Source: Pocillopora damicornis
Taxonomy: Eukaryota
Length of the DNA: 64,000 nt
Assembly (NCBI RefSeq): GCF_003704095.1
Contig: NW_020844379.1
Span: forward strand, 1 to 64,000
Direction of reading: 5' to 3'
The notes beneath the pieces are model-generated. The model made no database searches. It saw nothing but the letters and a program-made list of their open reading frames with translations, and was not told where the DNA came from. Positions 929 to 62,300 of the stretch are shown here, piece by piece (within the stretch, counting starts at the first letter, position 1; every line of letters begins with the position of its first letter). The position numbers were made by a program, and so were the translations under genes.

Positions 929-3428
929 ATGAAGTCAGCCGTATTTGGTTGGATCATGCTCTGTTGTGTATTTCCCCAAGGTTCAGGTAAGCAGTACAAG
1001 CCTGTCCAAATGAAGAATATTCGTCGTGGCATCAGAACGAAACACTTCATTGCTTAAATCTTTTTAACTTACTTTTGTCTAAAACAGTCATGACAGTACC
1101 TAAGGGTTGTCATTGCCAGCTTAATGTTTGACTCAGCTCGTTGTTTCACTTGTTTTGCTTTTCTCACCTCAATATGGTTTAATACTAAACATTGGCTGAC
1201 CAGTTCTTTGCAATATCATTGACAACAGACTGTGTCTTAATGATCGACGTTCGTACTGATGTGTGTGCGTACTTTAGACTTGAGAGGTACGTTACTCTTC
1301 GTAATTTGGGATTTCGACTGACTTAACAAAATAAATCCTAAAAAAAAAGGACTACCTTAATGGAGGCGTAAAAGCCTATTGGCTACATAGCGCTCCGAGT
1401 CGAATGCACTGATGTTGACAAAATACTTTGTGTTAGAGCCAATAGCAGTTTGGAGCCAAGCTTATGTAGACGGAGGGCTGTAAAATGTTTTGAAGTTAAA
1501 CCACAAATGTTTTAAAGAAGCCAAAGGTATACTGAAACCCAGTATTCTTTTCATTCACGCTCGCTGCAGATATTTCTTTACCCTTTGATTTGAAAAGTCA
1601 AAACAGGTGCTTTGCTGGGTTAAGTCACTGTGTAATCATCTCTTGTGTATGCATGTAGAACCTTAGGTTGTATCCGGCTCGTAATCTTCTTTAGGACGTG
1701 AACCGCGGAGATTAGCCCCATGTAATTGAGGTATACTGCAAGTCGACTAACACATATCATAAACACCTTTGCAGAATGCATGAACATCCATGGAGGGCGA
1801 CATATAAAAATGAAAAAAGAGTGGAAAAATAAGAAAATGATTTTCAAAACGGAATTCCAAGCGAAAGGAAGTGTTACAGCCAGACCAGAAATCGAAAGCA
1901 AAAACATGGAAAAAATGTTGGCCGGGTAAGCATCCGTTATCTGTCTCAAGTTTATCTACTGCTTTTTTCAATTTTTTCATTTCTTTTTTTTTTTGTATTT
2001 TTGCCCAAGGGGAGGGGCACTAGTTAAGCTTGAGGGTTTTTATTTCAGCGTTAGAGCTCTCTGCTAAGGGCAATTATGATGATTACCAAAAGTCTCTGTT
2101 ATCATTTTGTTTTCAGGAGAATAGCACCCAGTAAACCTTTGACACAGAAAAGATCAACAAGTTCTTCACAAGACTTAGACGGGGCAGCAAAGATCATTTC
2201 TCTTCCAGCAACTAGAAAAGATGTTTTAGTGAGAAATCCCCAAAATGTCCACTTCGCTAAGAAAGTCGTAGTTGGTAGTCAGTTCCGAAAACTTTTAAAA
2301 AAACTGTACCAAAATCATTCGAAAGATGTTCAGGCTATCAAAAGAAAACTAACTAGTGAACAACTCCAGTTGTTAGAATCAAAAGAGGAAGGCGAGGACG
2401 ATAAAGCCGACATATACAGCATCGAAGGTAAATCAGAAGCTTCCAAAAATAAAACAGTCGTCGAACTCCGAGCTGCAATACTGAGGTTATTGAACGAAGT
2501 TGCAAAAAAGGCTAAATCAGCCCACAACGCTGAACAAAGATATAAACAAGACGAATCATCGAGACACCCTTTTAGAAGAAAAAAATTCGGCCAGACTTTA
2601 AAGACAGAGATAGAAGAAAGTTATGATCATAGCAGAAGCCCATCTTCCATAGCTAAAGGAGAGGATCTCTCTGCAAAGCGCGCAAACTATTTGGATCTTC
2701 TTAACTTCATCACACGAATGAAAAGCACGGACATTGGAAAAGATGTTGATTTGTACAACACTGATAGTATGCAGAGTTCGAGTATGATGGTAAACAGTGG
2801 CATGAATAAAATGCTGAACTCAAGAGATCTAATGACACAAATTCCTAACACAGGAAATAGGCAACAAGTAAAGGAAGAAAAGGGAGTCTTGCCAGGAGAG
2901 GGAATGCAAATGCAGGAATTAAATCTTGCGAAACAAAGGTGGCTTCTTGAAGACCAGTTGGAAAATCGCATCGCTCAACTTCAGTCGAAAGCGCGATTAC
3001 CTGTGCCCCAACAAGAATTTCCACAAATACAAAATTCTCAAAACAATGACATGACAGACTTTATGCAACGTCTTCAGAATGTGATCACAACTCCTTCACT
3101 TGGGCCTATACCCCTTTCATATCGAGGACCAGCCATGTTTCAAAAGCCGTCATTTCTTCCTCGTGTTAATCAATATCTACCTTTTGCACGACCATTCCCC
3201 GCCACCGAAACGCGGTTACCTTTCTATCGACCAATGAATCCAAGACCTCCATATCCAATGGATGATGAGGGAGAAGATGATAATGAAGATGACGATGATA
3301 ATTCCGACTATGACAATGATGAACGAGATGAGCCTCCACCACATCATTCGGACCGTGAGCACGAAGATAGTTACAATGCTGACGAAGATGAAGGGGAGCA
3401 AAGATACCCTGACATAGACGAAAGATAA
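929..3428 (+). CDS. Gene A: secreted orphan protein (~506 aa) with basic/helical N-half, Pro/Arg/Phe/Tyr segment and Asp/Glu-rich C-terminus
   Basis: Exons 929-986, 1775-1925 and 2117-3428 are joined by GT-AG introns of phase 1 and 2; 1521 nt in frame. N-terminus MKSAVFGWIMLCCVFPQGSEC is signal-peptide-like. Tail DDEGEDDNEDDDDNSDYDNDERDE. Confidence 0.8.
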
Positions 3429-28167: not shown

Positions 28168-29757
28168 ATGTCCAGTGAAGACAAGAAAGCGATTGCCACC
28201 AATGAACGCAACGAAGAAGACAAGCAATGTTGCCCGAATGTGAATCGGAAACTCTTAATTCCGAAAGCGTTTTACTTCTTTTTCTTTTCTGCCTGGGGAT
28301 CACTTCTGCCGTACTTAGCTTTGTATTTTAAACAGCTGATGCTTTCACCGAGCGAAGTAGGAATCCTTATGGGCCTGAAGCCGTTTGTGAACTTTCTTGT
28401 TATTCCAATATGGGGCGCCATAGTGGACAAATGTCAAAAGAGTAAAGTGGTTATGGTTATTTCTATCATCGCCTTAATTACATCCACTTTCACTCTAAGT
28501 TTGGTTCCTGGACCAAAAAAGAACAAAGTAGTGGTTAAACGATTTTGTAACATGACTGCTCCAAGATATTCTAGCCTGATTGACATACACAGACCCGTTA
28601 TTGATAGCCCAAACTTGGAGTTTCCCGAACCAGGAATTGACAAGATGGTGGATATAGGGAAAGGTCAAGAACACTATATGCCTTTCTTTTACAAAGGCCC
28701 CAAGCCTTGGTCTCTTGAACTTTTCATCAACTTAGACGAAAAGACCACTGTTAGGGTAGAATTGGATACAACACAGTGTTTTATGACATTATTTTTGATA
28801 ACCTTTTTCGGTACTTTGATTTCTGCACCGACGTTGGCTTTGGTCGACACAGCCACACTACAACTTCTAGGCTCGGAAACCTACAAGTACGGCATGCAGA
28901 GACTCACGGGATCGATTGGTTGGGGTGTCGGTGCTTTCGTCGTCGGCGCCTCCCTTAAAACGACCCACCAATGTGGTAAAGATAAAGACTACGAGATCGT
29001 AGATTACGTTCCCTGTTTTTATACTTTCGCTGGTTTAATGTTTCTGGGCTTGATAACGGCCACGCAGTTTAAATTTGAGGAGAAATCGAAGAAGTCAAAG
29101 GGAGCAAGTCTTAGTGTTGGGCTGCAAGCTTTGAAAAGTCCAACATATCTCATGTTTCTCTTCACAGCGTTATATTTAGGCTTTTTGATGGCATTTATAA
29201 AAACATTCCTTTTCTGGCATCTCAAGGATCTGGGTGGAAGTCAGCTACTTTTTAGCATCATTTCCGCAGTTAACTGTTTCGCGGAAGTCAGTATGTATTT
29301 TCTTTCCGCCAAACTAATCAAACGAATTGGTCACGCGAAGGTTTTATACCTAGGACTAATCTGTTACTCAATTAGATTGTTCTATTATTCAGCCATTCCA
29401 ATCCCGTGGATGGTCCTGGCTGTTGAGTTACTTCCTGGTATAACAACAGCAGCAGTCTGGGCTGCTTGCCTCTCCTACGTCAGCATCAACTCGGGACCTG
29501 GCGCTGCCACAACAATGCAGTGTATTTTGCATGGAGTGCACTGGGGCCTCGGTTACGGTGCGGGAGAGGTGATTGGAGGCATAATGGTGCATCATTACGG
29601 TGCGCCGACGACATTTATCATTTTCGGTGTTTTATGTCTAGTTATCTTAGGCGCATATATTTTAATTAACTACTTCTGCGGGTCCAGAGATGGAAAACAA
29701 GGCTGCAGTGCAGACTCTGAATACTCAGAAATAAGTGACGATGACAGTAAAAGATAG
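28168..29757 (+). CDS. MFSD6: MFSD6-like MFS transporter, paralogue 3 (529 aa)
   Basis: Complete ATG-to-stop intronless ORF. Motifs KAFYFFFFSAWGSLLPYL, FLFWHLKDLGG, LHGVHWGLGYG. Confidence 0.92.
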   Translation: MSSEDKKAIATNERNEEDKQCCPNVNRKLLIPKAFYFFFFSAWGSLLPYLALYFKQLMLSPSEVGILMGLKPFVNFLVIPIWGAIVDKCQKSKVVMVISIIALITSTFTLSLVPGPKKNKVVVKRFCNMTAPRYSSLIDIHRPVIDSPNLEFPEPGIDKMVDIGKGQEHYMPFFYKGPKPWSLELFINLDEKTTVRVELDTTQCFMTLFLITFFGTLISAPTLALVDTATLQLLGSETYKYGMQRLTGSIGWGVGAFVVGASLKTTHQCGKDKDYEIVDYVPCFYTFAGLMFLGLITATQFKFEEKSKKSKGASLSVGLQALKSPTYLMFLFTALYLGFLMAFIKTFLFWHLKDLGGSQLLFSIISAVNCFAEVSMYFLSAKLIKRIGHAKVLYLGLICYSIRLFYYSAIPIPWMVLAVELLPGITTAAVWAACLSYVSINSGPGAATTMQCILHGVHWGLGYGAGEVIGGIMVHHYGAPTTFIIFGVLCLVILGAYILINYFCGSRDGKQGCSADSEYSEISDDDSKR

Positions 29758-40692: not shown

Positions 40693-42372
40693 TTATGTTT
40701 TTGATTTGATCTTGTTTAAAAAAACAAATATTATAAGGATACAAAAGCTTATAAGAGCGTACAAAAGAAACAAAGTCTTCATTTCGGCGAATTGTACAAG
40801 AAATCCTCCTATAAACCCACCAGATGCGAAACCAAGTCCCATGTAAACTCCATTTAGAATTCCTTGAACTGTGTTTGGTACTCCGGGATGCAACCCAACG
40901 TAAGAAACACACGATGACCAGAATGCTGCGGTGGTAATTCCTTGGAGTAATTCCGCAGGTAAAACTGCCCAGGGACTTTTCACGAAGTAGAAGTAAATAA
41001 AGCGAATAGAGTAGCAAAATAACGCGACATAGATAACATTGATGTGTCCAAGAAAACCGAGCAGCTTGTCCGTCACAAAAAACACACACACTTCTGCCGC
41101 ACAGTTTAGCCCGTTCATCACGCTGAATAATAACTGTCCTCCCCCTAATTCGTGAAGATACCAAAATAGAAACGTTTCTATAAATCCCGTAGCTGAACCG
41201 CAAAAAAACGCGATGAACATGACAAAACAGAATTGAGGATTACGAAAAACCTTGAGCCCTTGGAGAATTTTTGGAGTTTTTGAGCCACCTGTGACATTTA
41301 CTTCTTGCTCATCTTTGATAAAAGGCTGATCAAACTGAAATTGAGTTGCGCATACAAACGCCACACTCATTGCCACCGCAAAAACGTAAAAACAAGGCAT
41401 GTAGTTGATGACAGTCTCACCACAACGATTCGTGCGATAATTCGCGCTGACAGCAGCTCCGACAGAAAATCCCCCAATGCCCCAACCCAGAGATCCCCAG
41501 AGTCTTACTCGACCATACTTATGAGATTCACCGTTAAGATTTTGAAGCGTTACAGTATCTGCAAATGCTTGGGCTGGAGCTGCAATCGCCGTACCAATTA
41601 CAGTTACAAGTAACAAGAATAGAAATTCCTTGGAGTCACATTCAACGTACTCATTCTCTGTTGCTATTGCGTTTGAAAAATCTTGAGGAGGCTTTGTAGC
41701 TGAAGGCTCTAATGATGCCACTTCCAGCTGATCTTTCCAGCCGTCATTGATCCTCAGGGCTTCCGCTTCTTTGCCGTGGTTGTGTAAAGTAACGTTATAA
41801 ACAGTCTTCAGATCTTTAAATGTTATAGGTAAGAACGGTACAGTTGTGTCAAGATACGGCGACACTCTGGAAAAAAAATCGTGTTTTCTTGTTTGCTGAC
41901 GAGTAACAGTGTTTGAATCGGAAAAGTTCTCAGTAAATTTAAGTGAGAATGTGCGACTGTTCGGCAATGAAATTTCTCTGTCATCACCATCGTTATAATC
42001 ATTGTACTTGCTGTTGTTATTGTTGTAAAGTTTACACCACTGAGGTTCATCAGTAGTTGGAACTAATGACAATAAAAAATTTGACACTAACCAACCTAAT
42101 ACCGACATCAGAAATATAACCTTGCTTTTGCAAAACCTATCTGCGCATGCGCCCCACAGAGGAGTTACGCAAAACTGAATCAGTGGACGGATACCAATAA
42201 GGATTCCGTTTTGATGGGAAGATAATCTCAGCTGTTTGAAATAAACTGGTAGGTACGGAAACAGTGCCCCAATAGCCACGTAAAATGACGTGTAAAATGC
42301 TTTTGAGAGCCAAAGTCCTTTATCCATGCCAGGAAGAAAACTTTTCTTGCTACTTACTCTTGCCGCACTCAT
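40693..42372 (-). CDS. MFSD6: MFSD6-like MFS transporter, paralogue 6 (559 aa)
   Basis: Complete intronless ORF. Motifs KAFYTSFY, WGACADRF, YGRVRLWGSLGWG, FLFWYLHELGG. Confidence 0.92.
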   Translation of the reverse strand: MSAARVSSKKSFLPGMDKGLWLSKAFYTSFYVAIGALFPYLPVYFKQLRLSSHQNGILIGIRPLIQFCVTPLWGACADRFCKSKVIFLMSVLGWLVSNFLLSLVPTTDEPQWCKLYNNNNSKYNDYNDGDDREISLPNSRTFSLKFTENFSDSNTVTRQQTRKHDFFSRVSPYLDTTVPFLPITFKDLKTVYNVTLHNHGKEAEALRINDGWKDQLEVASLEPSATKPPQDFSNAIATENEYVECDSKEFLFLLLVTVIGTAIAAPAQAFADTVTLQNLNGESHKYGRVRLWGSLGWGIGGFSVGAAVSANYRTNRCGETVINYMPCFYVFAVAMSVAFVCATQFQFDQPFIKDEQEVNVTGGSKTPKILQGLKVFRNPQFCFVMFIAFFCGSATGFIETFLFWYLHELGGGQLLFSVMNGLNCAAEVCVFFVTDKLLGFLGHINVIYVALFCYSIRFIYFYFVKSPWAVLPAELLQGITTAAFWSSCVSYVGLHPGVPNTVQGILNGVYMGLGFASGGFIGGFLVQFAEMKTLFLLYALISFCILIIFVFLNKIKSKT

Positions 42373-43554: not shown

Positions 43555-46500
43555 TCAACGTAGGTACGGTTTTAAGCACTGGTATACTATCTCAGCCATC
43601 TTGTCATAGCCATAAGCGGTAGGATGAAGATGATCATTCCACAAAAGAGCTTGGGTTTGAGGCGCAAGCGAATGTCTCGGAAACTTAGCAGCCAAATCAC
43701 ACAGCACTACATTTCCTTGTGATCTAAGTGCATACTTTCGCAAGTCTTCGTTTAGTCTATTACGCATAACCCACAAGGTCTTAAAACTAGGCCAAGCTTC
43801 GTAAGCCGTTTCCGGAATGGTTAAAAGGAGGGTTCGCGCACCGTACCGGTGTGCAGTTTCATGGAGCATTTCAATATCACTTGTAATTCGTGGCTGCCAC
43901 ACGTTAATTAGCTGAGTCATAAATGAATCATCGTCTCCAAAATTCTTAACATGTGCTACGTCATTAGTTCCACCCAGAATGATTACCCAATCAAATCGTG
44001 AGCTGTTTCCCAATACTTGTGGTAAGCGCTTGGTCATGCTGCCATGTGCCATTTCACGCACTTTTCCACTCGTTTTGACGTAATACTTCAGTCTACCATC
44101 AGAATTCAGTAGTTGACTGAGTCGTTGACTGTAGGGGTGGAAATTTCGCCCATGGTTGAAAAAGCCACTAGTCAAACTATCTCCAAAACATAAAATGTTT
44201 CGCGAGTAAGGATCTGACCTTCGAGGAGAAAAAGATATCGGAGAGGATGCTGGTAAAGACCCTGGTGACTGAACAGATGAAGGTTCTGACTGAGAGACAG
44301 ATGGAGGTCCTACTGGGGAAATCTGTGAATTTTCATGTGGGGGAAAGAACTGCTCCATCGTTGGACGAAATGATGATCGGCCAATGTCCGGTTCTCCAAG
44401 GGTTGGAGGTAGTTGGGTTGTAAGAGTAGGCGTTAGTGGTGTATATGGTGACTGGGGTGGAATCGTCGTTATCACAGTAGTCTTCAACGGAACAGCAGTT
44501 GATTTCGGCTTGGACTTCAATGGAGGTTTCGGAATAAAACTTGTTGTTTTTGCAAGAATTGTGCTGCTCAGGCTATTTGAATCTAAGTTGCCTATGCCTA
44601 ACTTTGATAAAATATTCGTCAAACTTGTCCTGACCATTATTTTCTTGGGTTTAGGAGATGTTCGTTTTGGTGGAAATGATGGCTCTTTTGTCTTATGCTT
44701 CGATTTGATTCCTTGTGCCTGCTTTGTTCTTTTTTTGCCAGCCCTCTGAAGCAGGAGTGGCAAAATGCGTTTCACGATGTCTTGCATGCTTTTTTCCCCT
44801 AATGAATTCTTTGCTGGGGTGGTAATCTTATTCGTTGGTATAGGCTTTTTTGTCGTCGTCTTTTCTGTAGTTGTGCTCTGTGTTGGTTTAGTCTTTACCT
44901 CAGTGGCCTCTGATTCCCCGACGTCATGATCAGCGTTGAGGATTTTAGCTACTACTGCAGGAAGTACTTTGGCCAACAGCCTTTGAATGTTGACCTTACT
45001 ATCCTTTTGGCGATTTTTTGGTTGTCCTGCTGGGTCTCCATTCCTCTCATTGTGTTTGGTTACATTATTTTCTTTTGCATGATTTATCTTTGATGTCGAG
45101 TTATCACTTCTGATGGAGTTGTTGTCTACATTTCTATTTTGCGTAAGAACAGCTTCAAGAGAATCAAAAACATCATCGCTATTTGTTTTGTTTTTCCTCT
45201 CATACGTCCTGGCAAGTTTAAGAACTCGTAAAAGCTTTCCATAGAATAGTTTATCGGGATTTTGAACGTGTTTTTCGCCTCTCTTGGATGAAAGCTTGTT
45301 CTTTTTCATTTCCAAACCACCCTTCACTTTCTTGTTATGTTTCTTCTTCTTTCCACCGTGTCTTTTCTCTGATTTACGTTTCAGGTGGTGACTTTTTTTG
45401 TGCACTCTATGATGATGTATTTTCCGCTTTGTCTCTACTTTGTGGTACTCTCTTGGCTTTTTGATGGAGTTGCGAGTCTTATTTGATCTGAAGCTTTTCT
45501 TTTTGCTGTGTTGCCACGACTTTACTCTCTTTTTCTTTTTTTTGTGACCACGCTTCGAAGATGAAGAGTTTAATTTGAATTTTCTCTCATCCTCTTTCTC
45601 CACTTTACGAAGAAATTCTTGGGATAAACCCCAAACCTTGGTTTCTTTCTCTTTGGTAGGCAGAAGGTTCATGGCATGCGCATAAGAAGGGTCACAAATA
45701 CGCACGTTATATCGTGGAATTTCTATTTCATTGGAAACTGTTTTCTGAATGTGGATAACACCTTTAGTCACGTACCACCTTTTACTGCACAGCTGAGCAT
45801 ATTTGACGGGAAACGTCCGTTGATGGTTTCTATGCCTTACTCTCAACCTTACAGGTCGACATGCGAGTAATGTGTGCAAATACTGCTTTTTGTGACCCAC
45901 AGCCCTTGTAATTTTCACGGTTCCGCGAGTTGCAAAAGTATCAATAACATTACACGTTTTAACGCGATGCCTACTAATATGCCATTTACCTCGAATTTCG
46001 TCACTAAGAGAATGATGCTTTCTGTACCGATGGTATTGCTTGAAATCCAAAATTTTCCCATGCCGCTCATGTGTGACGTGGTGTCCGCCTAACCCTTTTG
46101 AATGACGATGAATTGCATGATCCTTCTTTCTGAAATGATAATGCGAATGCCTTGAGTGACCGGTCTGCACAGTTATCTGTGGATGTGGAATATTTGTCCT
46201 TCTATACTTGTTTGATGTGTCTTGACGTCTCTTATGTTGTGCTTTCTTTTCCAATCCATGATAAGTGTGATAAACCTCAATTTCCGATGAAGTGTGCACT
46301 CGTCTTGATGCAAGGATATGTGATCTATGACGCACTCCTCTAATTGTCGAACCATTATGACGACCCTTACCCAATTTTCGTGTGCCATAACGCTCCTTGG
46401 TTTGCTTTCCCGCTTTCCTCCCAACTTCAATTTTATGATGTCTTGGTGAGGAAGCTTTACTCGAGGCTCTGTTGCTTTCCTCTTCAATATCCTGAATTTC

Positions 46501-47664
46501 TTCGAATTCCGAGTGTTTTCTGAAAGGGCGACTCTGTTTCCTTTTCTTATGTCTTCTGTTTTTTCTTCGAGGCTTCTTCCTCCCTTCCCCGGTATGACTT
46601 GATTGTCGTGGTGATAAACTGACTTTGCTAGAACTTCCTTTAAGGAAGGAAATGAGAGGGGATGGAGTAGTTTCTGCTCCAACGAAATTACTCATGAAGG
46701 GGCTCTCTCCATAATAACCGTTGCTGAAGGAACTTCTGGTCATAGAATTCTTGTTTGAAGGAAAGTAATAGGGGGTTATGTAGGAGACATTAGGTTCCAC
46801 AGGATATGACGACACGGCTGGCTTATCATTTGAAATTCCGACGGAATTGCTGCTATATGGAAGTGGGCGGGAAACCTTGGTTTCAATTGGATAATTTTGA
46901 TTTTCCATCACACCCGCCGGTATTGGAGGCCGAGAATAAAGATAATAAGCTTTCGGATAACGAACTGTAGGTAGAATTGGATTAAAAACAGCGGGGTATT
47001 GTTCTGATGGGTAATTTAACGCTGGCTGAATACTATTGAATGCTCCTTGGTAATAGTTATTGAAGCGTTTTGTCGCCCTCGCTGGAGAAGGCAAAGTTGG
47101 TAAAAGGTTCCTGAGCGCAACATTCCCTCCAATTAAAGGATCGTCATTGTTGGTAACAGATGTAATTTTTTCATGCTCGTTATTTGGTGAAGGAAAATAA
47201 ATTGGAGACGAAGGCCTCTGTTGCGGAGCCTCGTTTTGCGAGGGGTGAAGTTTCTTTACATTTTGATGAAAATGTTCCGTTATGCTTTCTGTTGTCATCC
47301 AAGGATGAGCTGCGGGATAGCCCGTGAGGGCATGCGGCGTGGGACCTAACTTAGTTGTTGATGTAGAGTTACTCGAACCAGGCCTCCGTGTGGAGCGAGA
47401 GTGAGCGCTAACGATTTTCCAAATCGCGTACAAGAATGTCAAAATAAACAAAGAAAAAACGGCATAAAATGCCACAGATCCATATCCTCGGTGACAAGAC
47501 ACCAACGAGCTAAATTTCTCTGCACAGTTAAGGCCATCACTGACTTCTTGCACTCCTGACCGCGCATTCAAATTGTGAATTCGTTTCCACCAGTAACTGT
47601 TTGGTACTGAACGGGACGCAGTGTTTCTAGGCCCGGATGTCCGATTTCCCTGCTCTCCAACCAT
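43555..47664 (-). CDS. Type II membrane protein (1369 aa) with long low-complexity stem and C-terminal SGNH/GDSL hydrolase domain
   Basis: Single 4.1-kb ORF with one TM near aa 62-84. The C-terminal ~210 aa has block I FGDSLTSG, block II Gly (SG), block III LGGTND and block V NDHLHP, so the catalytic Ser-Asp-His is intact. Confidence 0.9.
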   Translation of the reverse strand: MVGEQGNRTSGPRNTASRSVPNSYWWKRIHNLNARSGVQEVSDGLNCAEKFSSLVSCHRGYGSVAFYAVFSLFILTFLYAIWKIVSAHSRSTRRPGSSNSTSTTKLGPTPHALTGYPAAHPWMTTESITEHFHQNVKKLHPSQNEAPQQRPSSPIYFPSPNNEHEKITSVTNNDDPLIGGNVALRNLLPTLPSPARATKRFNNYYQGAFNSIQPALNYPSEQYPAVFNPILPTVRYPKAYYLYSRPPIPAGVMENQNYPIETKVSRPLPYSSNSVGISNDKPAVSSYPVEPNVSYITPYYFPSNKNSMTRSSFSNGYYGESPFMSNFVGAETTPSPLISFLKGSSSKVSLSPRQSSHTGEGRKKPRRKNRRHKKRKQSRPFRKHSEFEEIQDIEEESNRASSKASSPRHHKIEVGRKAGKQTKERYGTRKLGKGRHNGSTIRGVRHRSHILASRRVHTSSEIEVYHTYHGLEKKAQHKRRQDTSNKYRRTNIPHPQITVQTGHSRHSHYHFRKKDHAIHRHSKGLGGHHVTHERHGKILDFKQYHRYRKHHSLSDEIRGKWHISRHRVKTCNVIDTFATRGTVKITRAVGHKKQYLHTLLACRPVRLRVRHRNHQRTFPVKYAQLCSKRWYVTKGVIHIQKTVSNEIEIPRYNVRICDPSYAHAMNLLPTKEKETKVWGLSQEFLRKVEKEDERKFKLNSSSSKRGHKKKKKRVKSWQHSKKKSFRSNKTRNSIKKPREYHKVETKRKIHHHRVHKKSHHLKRKSEKRHGGKKKKHNKKVKGGLEMKKNKLSSKRGEKHVQNPDKLFYGKLLRVLKLARTYERKNKTNSDDVFDSLEAVLTQNRNVDNNSIRSDNSTSKINHAKENNVTKHNERNGDPAGQPKNRQKDSKVNIQRLLAKVLPAVVAKILNADHDVGESEATEVKTKPTQSTTTEKTTTKKPIPTNKITTPAKNSLGEKSMQDIVKRILPLLLQRAGKKRTKQAQGIKSKHKTKEPSFPPKRTSPKPKKIMVRTSLTNILSKLGIGNLDSNSLSSTILAKTTSFIPKPPLKSKPKSTAVPLKTTVITTIPPQSPYTPLTPTLTTQLPPTLGEPDIGRSSFRPTMEQFFPPHENSQISPVGPPSVSQSEPSSVQSPGSLPASSPISFSPRRSDPYSRNILCFGDSLTSGFFNHGRNFHPYSQRLSQLLNSDGRLKYYVKTSGKVREMAHGSMTKRLPQVLGNSSRFDWVIILGGTNDVAHVKNFGDDDSFMTQLINVWQPRITSDIEMLHETAHRYGARTLLLTIPETAYEAWPSFKTLWVMRNRLNEDLRKYALRSQGNVVLCDLAAKFPRHSLAPQTQALLWNDHLHPTAYGYDKMAEIVYQCLKPYLR

Positions 47665-49652
47665 TGACAGCTACATTGAATTCACTGCGAGGCAGAAAGA
47701 GAAAAGGTTTAAGATAATGAATATTGCCAAACTCAAATAGGCATCTATCTGATGTTAGTTTGAAGGTTTAGTGACAATGCTTGCGTTATAATAAAACGAA
47801 ACCGTCTATAACACTGCGAATTGCACGACTCACTGGAAACCAATGTGGGAGGTGTTTGAGGTACATTAGACAACATATCCAGAATAAACTGTACGATTTC
47901 TGAGTAATGCACTGGTTCGTATTTTGGAAAATAGCTATCAGAAGTGTCTTTAAGCTGAGAGGTTGCAAAGGGCATTGTTGGAATTAAAGGGTGGAAATTC
48001 TTTCAAGCACTACATAGGACAAAAGCAGCCATCCCAGCTATTGACTTCAGATCTACTAGAGCGAAGCAAGAAGTCCATTTGTATGATCTCTTTGCTTTAA
48101 TAGACAAACAAGTTGGTTAAACATTCATTCGACCGCAACAGGTGTGTAAATTGTGAAACTAACACGACTGCTTGTTCAAGCAAGTGGCATGAACCAATAA
48201 CCTGACAAAGACAGAGCACATTTGTGATCAAAGCGACGAAGGAACACAAAACAAGGTAGGAAACTTTGCCGTGGAATTTGAACGATCCTCGGTGAAAAGA
48301 AATTATACTTACTCTAAACCAGCCAACGTACTCAGAGAAGCCTTTTGGGCGTACCCGTTCTGCTAAGATGATAAGTTGTTGACCTTCATAAACCGTCAAA
48401 TTTTACGCTATTCCTTGAATAGGCAAATTAAATTGCCTTTGCTTCTCGCTGACGCCGATTTCTCTGGATCTCAACCAAGAATCTTACTGGTATTTTAAAA
48501 CCAAGACGAAGAACTTGCTGCCACACATGAGGACGAGCTTCGGCAGAGGATTTTCAGAGAAAAACTACTATACTAAAATGGAAATGATGTGCGACAAAAA
48601 TTGTCAAAAATGAGGTCATATCGTCGTTTGGGAGTTTCTGAGATTCGTCTTTTAAGCCCAATGTTTTCCTTCATAAATTTATGGTAAGGATTCTATTACA
48701 CTAATCTCTTTTGATTTCTTTTCTGCTTGTTTGTATTTTTTGAAAATCAAGCTATAACAATCACAGAGACTATTTACGAAATGGCAAAGGAACGTATATC
48801 GATACAATTAAAAAATGGAGCTTCTGAAACATCTCCTGTAAATTCAACTTTCTTATAAAATTCATTTTGCGTAAAATTTATTGTATGCTAGTCCCACTTT
48901 GATATGTAGAAGTACAGTGGCTCTCACGGAACCGCAAACGAGACATACGTGGCTAGGACTAAAGTGCTTTTTCTTTAAATATAATCACTAAATAACGTCA
49001 TGCACTAAGCCAAAGGAAACGCCATATTTCATAAAAAAAAAACTCCACCCATTATAACACACAATTATGTTTGACGGGTTTTGTTGGTACGTTGAGTTAA
49101 TGGAAAGAACGTTTCAAGATGATTGGATGAATAAATTGAATCAAATATCTGTAGTAAAACAACTATAATAAAGACAGTATGGGGACTAAAAACGGTAAGA
49201 ATTCATGATGGGAAAAATGTGATGACGCACTCGGCAAAACTGTGTAAGCTTCGTCCTGAGGAACTTTTTGAAAATAGATCAATCCGCCTGGAAAAGTGAA
49301 ATAACGACCCCCTCGATGGTAACAGATATACAGGTGTAAAAGTACGACTGGGAAAGCGCAGATTAAGAAAGAAACGAGCCAGAGAAGCGTAATTTTACGT
49401 CTGCTCTTTTGACTTTCGCCCTTGTTCGCATTGCGCCGCGCCGCCCGAGAAAGTTTAGATAAGCGTCTCAAACAAACTGTTTAACCAAGCCTTAAAGTAG
49501 TAAATGAGTTCTCAGTAATCGGACCCTTCTTTTGGCGCAAAGATTTATGGGATCGCCGGGGGGTCAAACTCTGCAAGTCGCTAGAACCAAAATAATGGCG
49601 AAAGCTTATTTCGACGTCCAAATCCACGATTTTGGAGAGAGATCAACCAATC

Positions 49653-52600: not shown

Positions 52601-55266
52601 GCTGTAAAATGATGATCGGGAAAGTAAGATTGGAGCAGCAGTTTAAACAAGAGGAGGAGAGGAGTACAGAAGAAACGATTTCAGAAGATCAAAAAATTAA
52701 AAGGGAAAGTACAGCAATTGAAATAGAGAGCGAGGAAGAGTTGTACGGATTGGCTCTCATACTCCGTAACACAGAAGACGCCGCCAAAAAGAGCCGTGAT
52801 TTGACAGGGATACCAGATAAAGAGCGGTCTGATGATCATGAAAGCAGTAGAGGAGAGAAAACAAATGGACCGTCTGAAAACAAAGAGAAAGCCTGTTTAA
52901 GATGTTGTCAAAATATTAACAGAAGCCTCATTATTTACAAAAGTTTTTACTTCTTTTTCTTTTCGGCTGTGGGTTCTTTATTTCCTTATCTCGCAGTGTT
53001 TTATAAACAGCTATGGCTTTCCGCCCATGAAACAGGAATACTGATCGGAATCAGACCATTGATTCAGCTTTTCGGAACGCCTATGTGGGGAGTCATCGCA
53101 GATACATACAAGAAAAGCAAAGTGATCTTTGTGGTGTCACTAGTTGCATGGTTGGTATCGAACTATTCCTTGTCTCTCGTATCTCCTGTTTTTCATTTGG
53201 GCGTTTGCAATGATAACGCTACCTTAACAATCATCCAAGAAATTATGAAAGAAATGAAAAACAGAACGATCTCACAGAAGAATAACACAACTCATCATAA
53301 ACATTCTACGCATAAACCCTCCATACCTCTTTCAGCAAACTCTGGAAATTCTAGTAATCATTGGTTTGAGATAGTCAGGAAAGAGAGGGCAAAACATCCT
53401 TCGAAGCGAAACGCAGGTCAACCATTGAAGTATACACTTCAAAACAAAGTAAACAAAGTGCTTCAGGTAAATTATCATGTAAACATTTTGTACGATTTGA
53501 TGGAAAAAACCGACAGTACTTTGGTTTCTAAAAGAGGAATCAAACAGATACATCGATTTTTAGACAGATCAACACTCCATACAAGTAGCCCCCCGATAGT
53601 GAACAAGTCAATGGTTCGTAAGCGAAGTGTTTATAAAGGAAGATTTCTTCATGCGTCACTCAACGATAATCAAAGAGGGAGCAATAACAAACGTCTAATC
53701 ACAATAGGACAGTGCTTCAAATCGGGCAGTGATGAACAAAGGTTACGCCGAGCCAGCTTGGATAAAAGCGCACTGATGTCCAAACCAGATATCTTAACAC
53801 TTTTCATGAATTCAAGTAGTATCAACGAGGACGGGGTTTTCATTCAATTTTACAGCGGATGGATGGAAAGAGTTTTCGACTCCCTGAACATGGCTGGGGA
53901 GTATCCATGGCCTCTGGACACAGTGGCGGACTATGAGTCAACACAGGAGGCACATGAGTGGCTAAATCCACATGATCATGACTTGTTTACCATCCTGTTT
54001 GTTATCACAGCTACTGGTACACTGATTGCTGCACCAGCTATTACCTTAGCTGACACTGCCACACTGCAGAAGCTTGGTGAGTATATTGAAGTTGTCGATA
54101 TTCAAAAATTTTCTTGATTATTTCTTTTGGGAACATACGTAAACTTTGTTGTGATACCTTGTTTTACTTCTGAGTAGATTTTTTGGGTAAAGCAATGAAA
54201 TACGTTATTGATATCACAACACTACTGATAACATGTATAAGTAATAGTGGTGGTACTAGTGGTAGTAGAAGTAGTCATAGTAGTAGTAGTAGTGATCGTG
54301 ATCGTGATCGTGATCGTGACCGTTATTATGATTGTATGTTTTCCTTCGTAAGGTAACAGGCCAGAGGACTACGGCAAGCAGCGTTTATGGGGAGCGTTTG
54401 GCTGGGGACTAGCAGCCTTTATTGTTGGATCAAGTCTAAGCACAGTTGAGGAACTGAGTAACTGTAACAATCCTTTGAGTGTAGATTACCTGCCATGCTT
54501 TTACGCTTTTGCGTGTCTAATGGGCGTGGCTGTCTTGATTGGTGCTTTGTTTGAGTTTGACGAAAAAGAGTTACACGAAAGTAGCATCTGGCAAGGGCTT
54601 GCATTGTTGTGTGACTGTCAATATATATACTTCATCTTCACAATTCTGTTCTGTGGAAGTGCACTGGGCTTTATAGAAACTTTCTTGTTTTGGCATTTGC
54701 AAGATTTAGGCGGTACACAGTTCTTGTTCAGTACCATCACTGCCATCCACTGTATTTCTGAGGTGGCAGTTTACAGTTTTTCTGGTACGTTCATCAAATG
54801 GCTAGGGCATCACCGGGTTTTGTACGTTGGACTTTCATGCTATATAATCAGATTTTTTGGCTATGCCCTTATAACAAACAGCTGGGTGGTACTACCTTTT
54901 GAGATCCTTCACGGCTTGTCCACAGCAGCCGTATGGTCAGCGGCCGTCGTCTTCGTGGGACTCATTCCCGGGGCGCCTGCAACAATGCAGGGAATTCTTG
55001 GTGGTGTGCACTGGGGTCTGGGTAATGGTGGTGGAGGAGTGCTCGGTGGATTATTAATCACTTACGCTGGTGCTACCACCTCTTTCCTCATATTTGGAGT
55101 AATCAGCATAGTAGACTTGAGTTTATTCATACTTTTGAACAACATGGAATTTTTCAACTGTTTTGAGTGGTCCAAAGGGAGTGGTACACAATCAGAGTAT
55201 AGTCCAGTAGAAGATGAAGCCTATAAAAATGAAAAACTAGAACCAGATTATGACGATCTTTACTGA
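49653..55266 (+). CDS. MFSD6: MFSD6-like MFS transporter, paralogue 7 (~809 aa, very large luminal loop)
   Basis: Exons 52602-54076 and 54353-55266 join in phase 1 (LQKL-G|NRPEDYGKQRLWG). Tentative first exon 49653-49693 (MSEMDLVDVDMMEP, phase 2, cc|gtaag) fits the acceptor at 52602; otherwise the start is ATG 52609. Confidence 0.82.
49752..49894. mobile_element. MITE-like element, copy 2 (inverted relative to 33204-33344)
   Basis: Reverse complement aligns with 33204-33344 along its whole length with few mismatches. Confidence 0.75.
51437..51602. repeat. Imperfect palindromic repeat resembling Penelope/retrozyme-type elements with a decayed hammerhead core
   Basis: Outer arms aactgagttgataatgtaaattggccac / gtggccagtttacatcgtaaactccgtt; inner arms agctaacatttcga / tcgaaacgtcagct. 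Confidence 0.5.
54242..54319. repeat. Compound microsatellite (tag)n + (gtgatc)n in an intron of paralogue 7
   Basis: Directly visible. Confidence 0.8.
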
Positions 55267-59317: not shown

Positions 59318-62300
59318 CTACTGCGGCTGCGCAGGATTAATGTCATTGAAAATTGAGAGATCAGCAAAATCCTCACCCATCGCGGCTGCCATGGCCGCCA
59401 TATAACTAGAAGGTCCACCAGTCTGAAGGCCGCTCAGGAACACATTGCTCAATGCCAGCTCAGGCGCCAACTGTCCGTAGTCCCCGACAATTTCCTGGTT
59501 ACCTAAACCGAGTTCTGTTCCATCCAGAACGGTAGAGCTGGCGACAGACTGGGGCGAGGGCGGGGAGGCAGGGGAACCTGGGTACAATGACATATCTGGA
59601 AAGCCATGAAATGGATACGAACTTGATGGCGGAGTTTCCTAGGCAACGACCAAAGAAATTACTACGGCAATTAGACTATGAAGGCAGTTATGAAAATTAA
59701 AGTTACTTAGCATTTTCAGTAACATAGACCCTTGTACATACAGCGGAGGCATCCGAAAGCAGTAACAGAAACAAGACGTTTAAACAGCATGCAGTCTTCA
59801 ACAAAGCCAATCGCTATTATATGTATCTTATCACTTAACTCTAGTTTGGTTTAAACTGTAGTTGGACGAGTAAAAGTTTCATCATTTCGCTCTTTAATGA
59901 AGCTACAAAATACAACGTAACCAGCTGAAATACATCAAAAGACGCTTACCATGGAAGAGTCCCTTCCAGCCGGGTACATAGGACTCCTGCCGCCCTGTCT
60001 CCTAAGTGAAGATAAAAAACCCACAGATATTTAAGGCGCTTAGCAGTTTCTAATCTGATCTTTATATCAGCAGTATTTTGAAACTGTCAAGATCGACTCA
60101 AAAGAAGTCATTTAGTTCGTACATAAAAGTCAAAAGAGGGCGTGGATCACATTCAGGTCGGCCCTTAAAAAACACTGATTATTGCATCTTGTATGATCGT
60201 GTGACAACGTTAGTTTTGTCTATAGTTGTTTCTTGGACAACTGGAGGTACTGACGTCATCGTTAAACGAAAATAATAAAAAGATAACTTAAATATAGTGA
60301 CTTGGCGTGGAAGTGTAATTATTTCAACCATTCTATACCACTAGAATACTCACCCTGCCAGCCTGACCGCCAGTACAGTTTGCTGATAATCATTATTATC
60401 AGTATCTTGGTTTTCTAAAAAACAACGCAAAGTAAGAAAGGGGACTCAGTTGAAATTTCTCATGATTTCATCAACTGCTGTTCGATTGCGTTCGTTTATT
60501 GAAAACGAAAGTTATTGTGTTCAGATGGATTTACGGGCACTTGTGGAAGTGAATTCCTTTCATTAAATAGCAATGACTATTTAAATGTTTGGGGTTTCTA
60601 TAGGTGGTACAGAAACTGTAGTCTGTTGCCGGGCTTCACGTTTTGTGTTGTGGAGTGAGAACTGTTCAGATTTGTCGGGGAATATTCAGTCTTTTGGCAA
60701 CGGCACCAACCGAAATAGCAAAGAAACTATCGATACTTGTTAAAATGATATATGAACATCATATGGTTGAACGGCTGAATAAGATAGTTAGTAAAAGAAA
60801 CGTCACTGCAGTTTAAGACACAACTACTCCATAGGTATTTGCATATCATTTCAGGTAGACTATACAGTTGAGTTATAGTCCTGCTTACCGTCATTGGTAT
60901 AATACGGACCAAAAGCGTCATCTTTAGCTATGTTAGGGTAAAGCTGAACAAGTTCTCCCAAGTCTTTTAGTCGGTCAGAGAATTTTCGCATTTGCAAATG
61001 CGCGTTCGTCCATGGAGCCACATCGAAAATTTCACAAGGACCTACACCATACAACAGAGAGGTACACCTATGAGGTTTATTTTACAATTTTTCTCCCGTA
61101 AAGGAATTATTATGGTATCTTCCCTCTCCAAGAAGTACTGAATTTCCACACTTTCCTTAAATTTGCCGCATACCGATAATACGGATGGTATGAACACTCG
61201 AGAAATTATTTCCTAAAAAAGAAATTGATTTTAAATATTAAGACACCTGTAAATCTCTACATGACTTAAACTCGTGTAAGAGATTGTACAGTCTTGACTT
61301 GTGGAATATACCTTATTAGTCAAAAGAAAAACTCCCCAATCCGTCTGTTCTGAGGTATACCGAAATATGTTTTTTTCCACTGAATTACTCCTTATGTACG
61401 ACGCTGAAAGGTTACAGATAAAGTCTCGACCTCCGAAATTAAAAACCTGTCCCTTCCAAAAATCACTTCATAACTGGTGCATTTTTATGTCTCATATAAA
61501 TCACTCGGAGAGTGAGGATAAAAGGAAATTGACCATGTTTAAAAATAAACAGCTCTCCCACACAAGCTTCATGAAATGTCAGAAACCGCAGTTTTCAGCT
61601 ATGTCCTTTAAGTACCCGTTTACTTTGTATATAGTAGCTGGCTTTCTTACCACCGTCAAAGGTATTAACATAGGCGACACTAATTCCACCAATCTCTGTC
61701 TCACTGAACCTCAGCAGGAACGTGCCAGAATTACAGCCTCTTAAAATGTCATGCGCATCATTCTTGCTGATAAAACCAGCCACGCGTCTGTAACAAAAAT
61801 CAGTAAAGTTCATTGCTGTAGTCTTCCTTTGTTTAATTTGTTCACATTTACATTTGAATCCATGCTAACATTTTCCTCAAAAGTCCAACAGAGCAAATGT
61901 TTAGCTAGTTCCATTGGTCCCCTGACCACAATGTTCAACAGGCATCCCACTCAGTGATTCAGCTCTCCCGCACAGTTCTACTATTATAATGTTCAAAGGT
62001 CGTTTTCTTGTACAGATTAGTAATAATAAATAATTCGAGAAAAAGTGGTTTTTCAAAAATCACGGTTGTGTTTGTACTTAAACAGAACTCTTGCGCCTAT
62101 CTTCAAATGCAAACTAGAAAGGGAATGTGACTGACATACCCGTCCCTCCATTCGTCCAGCAGCCGTCTTGACACCACATCTAAGGCTCCGTAAAACCATT
62201 TCCAAAACGAGAATGAGCGGCCGTTCATATGATCCTGATGTACAGGAGGCATTGAGTTAAAAATTAACACAAGAAGACAGAACATCTATTTATTTATCTA

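Follow-up and report, generated by a model that had tools for sequence, protein, structure and literature searches.

The first 64,000 nucleotides of contig NW_020844379.1 of Pocillopora damicornis (RefSeq assembly GCF_003704095.1), hereafter the window, contain on the reverse strand a single uninterrupted open reading frame (ORF) of 1369 codons (43555-47664), which encodes an SGNH/GDSL-2 domain carried on one membrane anchor and a stalk of ~1070 residues. By sequence comparison this is an ancient cnidarian gene, of which the window holds the stony-coral copy, and not a peculiarity of one genome. We propose, with about an even chance of being right, that the product works as a type II ecto-enzyme on the O-acetyl groups that matrix glycans carry; for this enzyme we infer both the substrate and the direction of the reaction.

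In the proposed arrangement, a short tail would lie in the cytosol, a signal anchor would cross the membrane once, and about 1280 residues would stand in the secretory lumen or outside the cell, a placement well supported in the orthologues. The C-terminal SGNH domain would form an acyl-serine intermediate through S1163, H1347 and D1344; its targets would most likely be small O-acyl groups, probably acetyl, carried by glycans in the glycocalyx, in mucus, in the mesoglea or in a secretory-vesicle matrix. The polycationic stalk, together with a basic and probably disulphide-bonded β-domain, may bind a polyanionic matrix and keep the enzyme at a long distance from the membrane.

The SGNH domain and its active site

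The catalytic domain occupies residues 1153-1369 (43555..44208, reverse strand, as are all features of this gene), as delimited by Pfam, alignment and structural model. Pfam Lipase_GDSL_2 (PF13472) matches residues 1159-1354 (E 1.6e-17; 65 bits against a curated cut-off of 32.9), and NCBIfam gave sub-threshold matches only (AxeA1, TesA-like). The GDSL, GTND and DHLH motifs are present, with the blocks in the standard order I-II-III-V. In a model of residues 794-1369, the predicted local distance difference test score (pLDDT) of the SGNH domain is mostly 93-99, and a structure search with this α/β/α fold reached Z 22.6 and a root-mean-square deviation (rmsd) of 2.2 Å over 181 residues with 4rw0. 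The Pfam match, the predicted fold and the structure search all support the earlier identification of an SGNH-type acyl enzyme. The structural neighbours, only 12-24% identical, include carbohydrate acetyl esterases, lipases, IAH1, PatB and OatA, and many carbohydrate acetyl esterases are among the top ones (7tog, 2vpt, 7ddy, 4tx1, 5b5s).

From 232 proteins, 210 with a Block I motif were aligned; 69 of these carry a clade-specific insert (residues 1238-1256 of the window protein, 43897-43953; pLDDT 82-83) and are treated here as orthologues, and 141 lack it. The insert served as the grouping criterion, so that its invariance is partly circular. The nucleophile S1163 (Block I, 44176-44178), N1234 (Block III, 43963-43965) and D1344 and H1347 of the D-H-L-H motif (Block V, 43624-43635) are invariant in all 69. 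It is from the fold and these conserved residues that an acyl-serine intermediate via S1163, H1347 and D1344 would follow. The original prediction had called the domain intact, which holds for the triad and the Block III Asn; in Block II, the sequence G-K-V-R-E places Arg1203 at the position of the oxyanion Gly (V1202-R1203, 44056-44061, from the alignment). Orthologues have Gly (39), Arg (29) or Gln (1) at this position. Since known members carry substitutions at the Block II Gly, Arg1203 is a variant of SGNH/GDSL-2 and not grounds to exclude membership.

The residue before the Block II Gly, V1202 here, is Val or Ile in 64 of the 69 orthologues and in none of the 141 other family members. Two His residues, H1207 and H1345, are invariant within the clade and rare outside it, and the invariant additions to the active site (H1207, H1345, D1244, D1245 and R1330) are all polar or charged. 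In OatA, transfer is promoted by an invariant Val or Ile at the matching place in Block II, a residue that esterases lack, and the V460G enzyme retained 9.9% of transfer and 148% of hydrolysis (PMC5697884). The Block II Val, the insert beside the active site and the extra invariant His would suggest a dedicated polymer substrate. By analogy with OatA, the same features tilt towards acyl transfer over plain hydrolysis, and within the matrix-glycan reading we would give the two directions about equal weight.

A different substrate class is conceivable, in that the protein could be a luminal or extracellular lipid hydrolase (a lysophospholipase, an enzyme resembling platelet-activating factor (PAF) acetylhydrolase, or one for wax or short-chain esters) fixed in mucus or on digestive surfaces, with the stalk helices in contact with lipid. 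GDSL-2 neighbours do include TesA, PAF-AH, PlaA and lipases, one orthologue bears the automatic label 'lysophospholipase L1-like esterase', and four amphipathic helices of the stalk are conserved. We nevertheless regard a lipid substrate as rather unlikely, given that the Val/Ile signature of Block II is confined to the clade in this comparison and that the polar and charged invariant additions to the active site would better suit a polar polymer.

The original prediction had offered PatB, AlgX/AlgJ and CASD1 as analogues. They are not close relatives; as judged by sequence, the window protein is a GDSL-2 SGNH protein outside the PatB, AlgX/AlgJ, OatA and PC-esterase families, and its best mechanistic parallel is the Block II Val of OatA. 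It shares Blocks I, III and V with SGNH/GDSL-2 (PF13472) proteins and differs from them in Block II, the insert, the type II anchor and the length of the stalk, with no solved relative above 24% identity. With OatA it has in common the Val that precedes the Gly of Block II, as well as the Asn of Block III (PMC5697884), and the SGNH domains superpose with Z 16.5-16.8. OatA, however, has a multi-pass AT3 domain, whereas the window protein has a single transmembrane (TM) helix, no AT3 Pfam match at E 0.1 and 16% identity; OatA is also among the lowest-ranked of the 50 listed structural neighbours. The Val common to OatA and the clade would thus be at best convergent.

The remaining known systems show similar partial likenesses. 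TBL/XOAT1 and CASD1 (PC-esterase) resemble the window protein in layout, with an N-terminal anchor and a luminal SGNH domain in a eukaryote (for XOAT1, PMC9487903), but the PC-esterase family is defined by loss of the Block III Asn (PMC5697884), which the window protein keeps, and no PC-esterase Pfam match was found in it. PatB (DUF459) is likewise an extracytoplasmic SGNH acyl enzyme (7tjb, Z 17.0), with 14-16% identity; PF04311 (DUF459) has no match in the window protein, and one orthologue fragment carries a precomputed PF04311 label. AlgX, AlgJ and PatB1 (DHHW) are also extracytoplasmic SGNH acyl enzymes, and in PatB1 of B. cereus, too, Arg stands at the position of the Block II Gly; AlgX-like enzymes, however, lack the Asn of Block III, and PatB1 has a circularly permuted domain, while the window protein has the standard order, the Asn and DHLH.

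IAH1, a soluble protein with one domain, has the same fold (3mil, Z 20.0, 18% identity) and stands no nearer than the GDSL proteins of bacteria. A grouping with such cytosolic esterases would have argued against the original prediction. The scores do not show it (Z 20.0 against 22.6 for the top structure; 46 bits against a top sequence score of 83), the tree described below having been built without IAH1. Nearest outside the clade is an unnamed eukaryotic GDSL-2 group (fungi, Physarum, and short and long animal paralogues), 30-45% identical, without the insert, the Block II Val or the four-Cys domain described below, and with only automatic labels as names.

Orthologues and origin

A search with the domain among longer proteins gave 65 matches from 444 candidates, 47 of them full-length orthologues of 1329-1688 aa. 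These cover stony corals, other hexacorals, octocorals and jellyfish, form one clade and share one order of TM helix, four-Cys domain, helices and SGNH domain; those with names come from Desmophyllum, Oculina, Dendronephthya, Xenia and Rhopilema. The Nematostella orthologue is present as a 229-aa model of the SGNH domain alone. A species-specific fusion or a mis-assembly was ruled out by the 47 full-length orthologues. The catalytic domain is 89% identical to that of Desmophyllum, and between stony corals and jellyfish or octocorals the SGNH domain is 57-64% identical, as compared with 4-17% for low-complexity segments of the stalk. Database labels of the orthologues are misleading ('protein PFC0760c-like', 'transcription factor SPT20 homolog'), or the model is shortened, as in Nematostella. 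Our literature searches, which covered listings and the starts of abstracts, found no paper on this gene.

In an exhaustive search, the scores of domain-length matches drop from 237 bits in the orthogroup to 143 bits in its next relatives. A quick tree was built from 117 domains (21 of the orthogroup, 77 of 137 other matches after thinning, and 19 of 80 bacterial loci), in which the group labels of unnamed sequences rest on similarity and on the tree itself. The 21 orthogroup domains form one clade (SH-like approximate likelihood ratio test, SH-aLRT, 100), with subgroups that contain the named corals, anemone, octocorals and jellyfish. The orthogroup is placed among sequences that include fungi and Physarum, with the bacteria apart (support 85), and bacterial full-domain matches reach at most 30% identity among the matches listed. 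A recent transfer from bacteria therefore appears unlikely on sequence grounds. A bacterial origin had been put forward earlier as a point for phylogeny to check: a recent one is disfavoured, as the orthogroup is not nested among bacteria in the quick tree, but when the orthogroup is constrained to form a clade with bacteria, the approximately unbiased (AU) test does not reject that tree (p-AU 0.435).

The wider SGNH group contains many short forms made of an anchor plus the domain, among them one with a name, from Oculina, as well as several independent forms with a long stalk, up to 1799 aa in length. A hydrophobic segment precedes the domain in 47 of the 141 other family members, mostly in a short, Golgi-type layout.

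Topology, stalk and alternatives to the proposed function

The orientation of the protein is best seen in its orthologues. Sequons (N-x-S/T) in the stalk are depleted in the octocoral group (24 observed against 92 expected, z -9.0, pooled over related sequences) and in hexacorals other than stony corals (13 against 29), and enriched in the medusozoan group (110 against 86). The depletion is visible in single octocoral sequences (e.g., 2 against 17.7 +/- 3.7), and six offset or substituted control patterns remain within |z| 1.9. Such selection, specific to the sequon register, implies that the stalk is probably exposed to the glycosylation machinery of the endoplasmic reticulum (ER). Acid-flanked Ser-Gly, the pattern of glycosaminoglycan attachment, occurs at 66 sites against 11.5 expected in the eight medusozoan-group orthologues. 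Together with the set of four Cys described below, the sequon selection and the Ser-Gly sites in the orthologues support the luminal or extracellular topology proposed earlier, and on balance a type II orientation, with the C-terminal part luminal or extracellular, is likely.

Several observations weigh against this orientation and the function built on it. First, as the orthologues are related to one another, the pooled sequon z-scores overstate significance; the stony corals give only a weak signal (44 against 59, z -2.1) and the window protein none (8 against 9.0), and the latter has no acid-flanked Ser-Gly site. Second, the charge rule, with two Lys/Arg before the TM helix and four after it, does not favour type II. 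Third, the fold does not specify glycans, its relatives including lipases, thioesterases and PAF acetylhydrolase, and the Val of Block II is equated with that of OatA by motif position and not by residue-level alignment. Finally, Arg at the Block II Gly position, found in 29 of the 69 orthologues, could lower or abolish activity in those lineages. The distribution of charge about the membrane, along with the very basic stalk, would fit an esterase anchored with its N terminus out and its C terminus in, facing the cytosol, with the basic disordered region binding nucleic acid or acidic lipid. The position-specific selection on sequons, the Ser-Gly clusters, the even and invariant set of four Cys and the want of any special closeness to IAH1 make that arrangement very improbable.

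If the protein does edit the O-acetylation of glycans in mucus, glycocalyx or capsules, it would bear on matrix tuning and microbial recognition in corals and jellyfish; if it is a cnidarian O-acetyltransferase, it would represent animal extracellular polysaccharide acetylation independent of CASD1. Sequence and models place it, as a member still uncharacterised, in a very large superfamily of enzymes, and show it to be conserved across cnidarians and mislabelled in databases. The parts most worth following are the unrecognised four-Cys domain and the transferase-like Block II.

Along the alignment, conservation peaks at the TM helix, at ~540-680, at four short helical segments and in the SGNH domain. 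In the second of these peaks, all 48 sequences compared have W561, C571, C602, C626 and C657. Between the TM helix and the SGNH domain, over 1000-1350 residues, no Cys other than these four occurs in 47 of 47 orthologues, one N-terminally extended sequence having two further Cys, both before its TM helix. AlphaFold predicts residues 561-660 (45685..45984) as a folded six-stranded β-domain (mean pLDDT 76, core strands 82-91), in which the Cys probably form two disulphides, with C602-C626 and C571-C657 as the pairs predicted from the register of the strands. This domain had no match in Pfam (to E 10), the ESM Atlas or PDB sequences, large protein collections lying outside this search, no Foldseek match at E <= 0.001 in the PDB and viral sets, and, in the set of proteins retrieved, no match beyond the orthogroup with an E-value better than 0.2. 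A wide comparison with VIA-align gave a best Z of 5.5 (69 residues aligned at rmsd 3.0) and included weak matches of AMIN-like and alpha-crystallin-like type. A profile built from hexacorals only finds 10 of 10 octocoral-group sequences but a single one of the eight from the medusozoan group; for the remaining seven, homology rests on alignment, position and Cys spacing. We consider it a candidate new domain family; weak or missing matches do not prove a new fold.

Around this domain the stalk is largely of biased composition, and all the elements named in the original prediction (the N-terminal tail, one TM helix, a Pro/Tyr/Asn region, two basic His-rich tracts and a Thr/Pro region) were recovered. 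The N-terminal tail (residues 1-62, 47479..47664), probably cytosolic, carries Cys47 and Cys57 near the membrane; a juxtamembrane Cys or Cys-Cys lines up across hexacorals, octocorals and medusozoans, and palmitoylation of Cys47 and Cys57 is possible. The TM helix (signal anchor; residues 63-85, 47410..47478), assigned by hydrophobicity, lies in a region 95-98% identical to Desmophyllum and Oculina, and 46 of the 48 full-length sequences have one hydrophobic cluster, one having two and one being without its N terminus. There follow a Pro/Tyr/Asn/Ser-rich region (residues 86-345, 46630..47409), probably disordered by its composition, and a first Lys/Arg/His tract (residues 346-560, 45985..46629; K+R 27%, H 13%), whose composition but not sequence is kept among orthologues. 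Beyond the β-domain lie a second Lys/Arg/His tract (residues 661-800, 45265..45684; K+R 37%, H 9%), four amphipathic helical segments joined by Thr/Lys-rich linkers (a hairpin at 803-850, then ~886-911, 957-976 and 1011-1021; 44602..45258) and a mucin-like Thr/Ser/Pro linker (residues 1031-1152, 44209..44574; S+T 31%, P 20%). The earlier picture of a His/Arg/Lys- and Pro/Thr-rich stalk is thus right for those tracts and incomplete for the stalk as a whole, which is not of low complexity throughout and also includes the β-domain (561-660) and the helical segments (803-1021). The modelled hairpin has pLDDT 75-83 and the other helices 47-68, and a motif like I-x-x-L-L-A-K-I-L-P occurs in 18 of 26 orthogroup sequences tested, in 0 of 5 octocorals and in 0 of 14 long paralogues. 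The 576-residue model (predicted template modelling score, pTM, 0.47) gave no indication that the helices of the stalk pack against the catalytic domain.

With some 85% of the chain non-catalytic and a net charge of +143 in the window protein (+41 to +205 over the 48 full-length sequences), the protein might mainly be a structural organiser of the matrix, a polycationic proteoglycan-like scaffold that condenses polyanions such as sulfated glycans. The SGNH domain would then serve to bind glycans and would catalyse little, at any rate in the proteins with Arg in Block II; the replacement of Gly at 1203, the Ser-Gly clusters of medusozoans and a possible R-x-x-R-S cleavage site in seven of their eight orthologues are in keeping with this. 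However, the catalytic Ser, Asn, Asp and His are invariant throughout the orthologues, the domain is far better conserved than the low-complexity segments of the stalk, and PMC9487903 describes active transferases in which the Block II Gly is replaced, by Ser in OatA of S. pneumoniae and by Arg in PatB1 of B. cereus. We consider a mainly structural role unlikely, and continue to favour an enzyme of matrix glycans.

As a separate observation, the acid-flanked Ser-Gly sites of the medusozoan-group orthologues are clustered and accompanied by the R-x-x-R-S motif, which is acidic and conserved; both are absent in stony corals, and together they suggest that the medusozoan-group proteins may be proteoglycans cut by a convertase. 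The window protein has no furin R-x-K/R-R site.

MFSD6-like neighbours, the 5' end and the rest of the window

Seven MFSD6-like genes of the major facilitator superfamily (MFS), all matching MFS_1_like (PF12832), surround the SGNH gene as a tandem cluster (19210-55266). They are 30-45% identical to one another over longer alignments and diverged anciently. By Pfam they lie at 19210-20847 and 40693-42372 on the reverse strand and at 24174-25709, 28168-29757, 31105-~33030, 38358-~40250 and 52609-55266 on the forward strand. The adjacent one (40693..42372, 559 aa) lies on the same strand as the SGNH gene, 1.2 kb downstream of it; along two thirds of its length it shares 87% identity with a protein from Stylophora. 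Among 57 matches to this transporter, seven sit on a longest contig identical in size to that of the SGNH orthologue (23,191; 228,894; 628,584; 884,105; 942,836; 1,646,939; and 1,158,649, the last from Nematostella); one contig size is given per cluster, so that pairs that do not match are uninformative. Since the same-size contigs include one of 23 kb and the Nematostella scaffold, they indicate that the linkage dates from the coral-anemone split and is conserved across Hexacorallia. Among the 57 matches, no MFSD6 orthologue from octocorals or medusozoans was recognised, and the evidence for linkage covers hexacorals.

The original prediction had speculated that the MFS neighbours serve the enzyme. 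The physical linkage is indeed old, reaching to Nematostella, but a supply of acyl donor would be hypothetical; a common pathway does not follow from linkage alone, and the MFSD6 neighbours need not be partners. An O-acetyltransferase given its acyl donor by a neighbouring MFSD6, as PatA serves PatB or RWA serves TBL, would agree with the seven shared contig sizes and with the transferase-like Block II. The neighbours, however, belong to PF12832, which to our knowledge is not among the acyl-donor families MBOAT, AT3 and Acatn (of the PatA, OatA and AT-1 systems), and no MBOAT was found among the 11 long ORFs scanned in the window. Conserved gene order is common in anthozoans, publications with both MFSD6 and acetyl-CoA showed no link between the two in their titles or the starts of their abstracts, and the catalytic domain, with over 1000 residues between it and the membrane, would be poorly placed for direct hand-over. 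Supply by MFSD6 is improbable in our estimation. A more elaborate possibility, which we consider unlikely, is that a eukaryotic GDSL-2 esterase became a cnidarian glycan O-acetyltransferase with a convergent OatA-like Val, anchored in the matrix by the new β-domain and the stalk and perhaps supplied by MFSD6; if true, this would give a first lead on the cargo of MFSD6-type transporters.

As for the gene itself, the predicted 1369-aa ORF was confirmed on the reverse strand with exactly the coordinates given earlier. A chance ORF was ruled out, as 30 shuffled versions of the window gave no frame without stops longer than 211 codons, and so was an origin of the stalk by tandem repeats, as none of the nine repeats detected in the window lies inside the ORF. 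A polypyrimidine tract with a CAG splice acceptor (47685..47705) stands 20 nt 5' of the ATG, with an in-frame TAG between them and the stop-to-stop frame beginning at 47670. A 5' non-coding exon upstream is therefore likely, with splicing predicted from a site of a kind that occurs 62 times over both strands of the 64 kb. The description as a single-exon gene thus stands for the coding sequence, which is unbroken, and 'single coding exon' is the better wording in view of the acceptor. Between the acceptor and the main start, an upstream ATG is directly followed by a stop codon (47672-47677, reverse strand). Four of the seven MFSD6-like genes likewise have the whole Pfam domain in one ORF, and the other three are interrupted, apparently by one intron each; the absence of coding introns is not special within this gene cluster.

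Elsewhere in the window, two low-complexity ORFs on the forward strand (2076-3428, 450 aa, and 15630-16499, 289 aa), acidic or Asn-rich with short amphipathic helices and without a Pfam match, are possibly large exons of secreted cnidarian proteins. At 59318-61864, on the reverse strand, lie exons of an SH2-domain gene (Pfam SH2, E 2e-7), which looks STAT-like.

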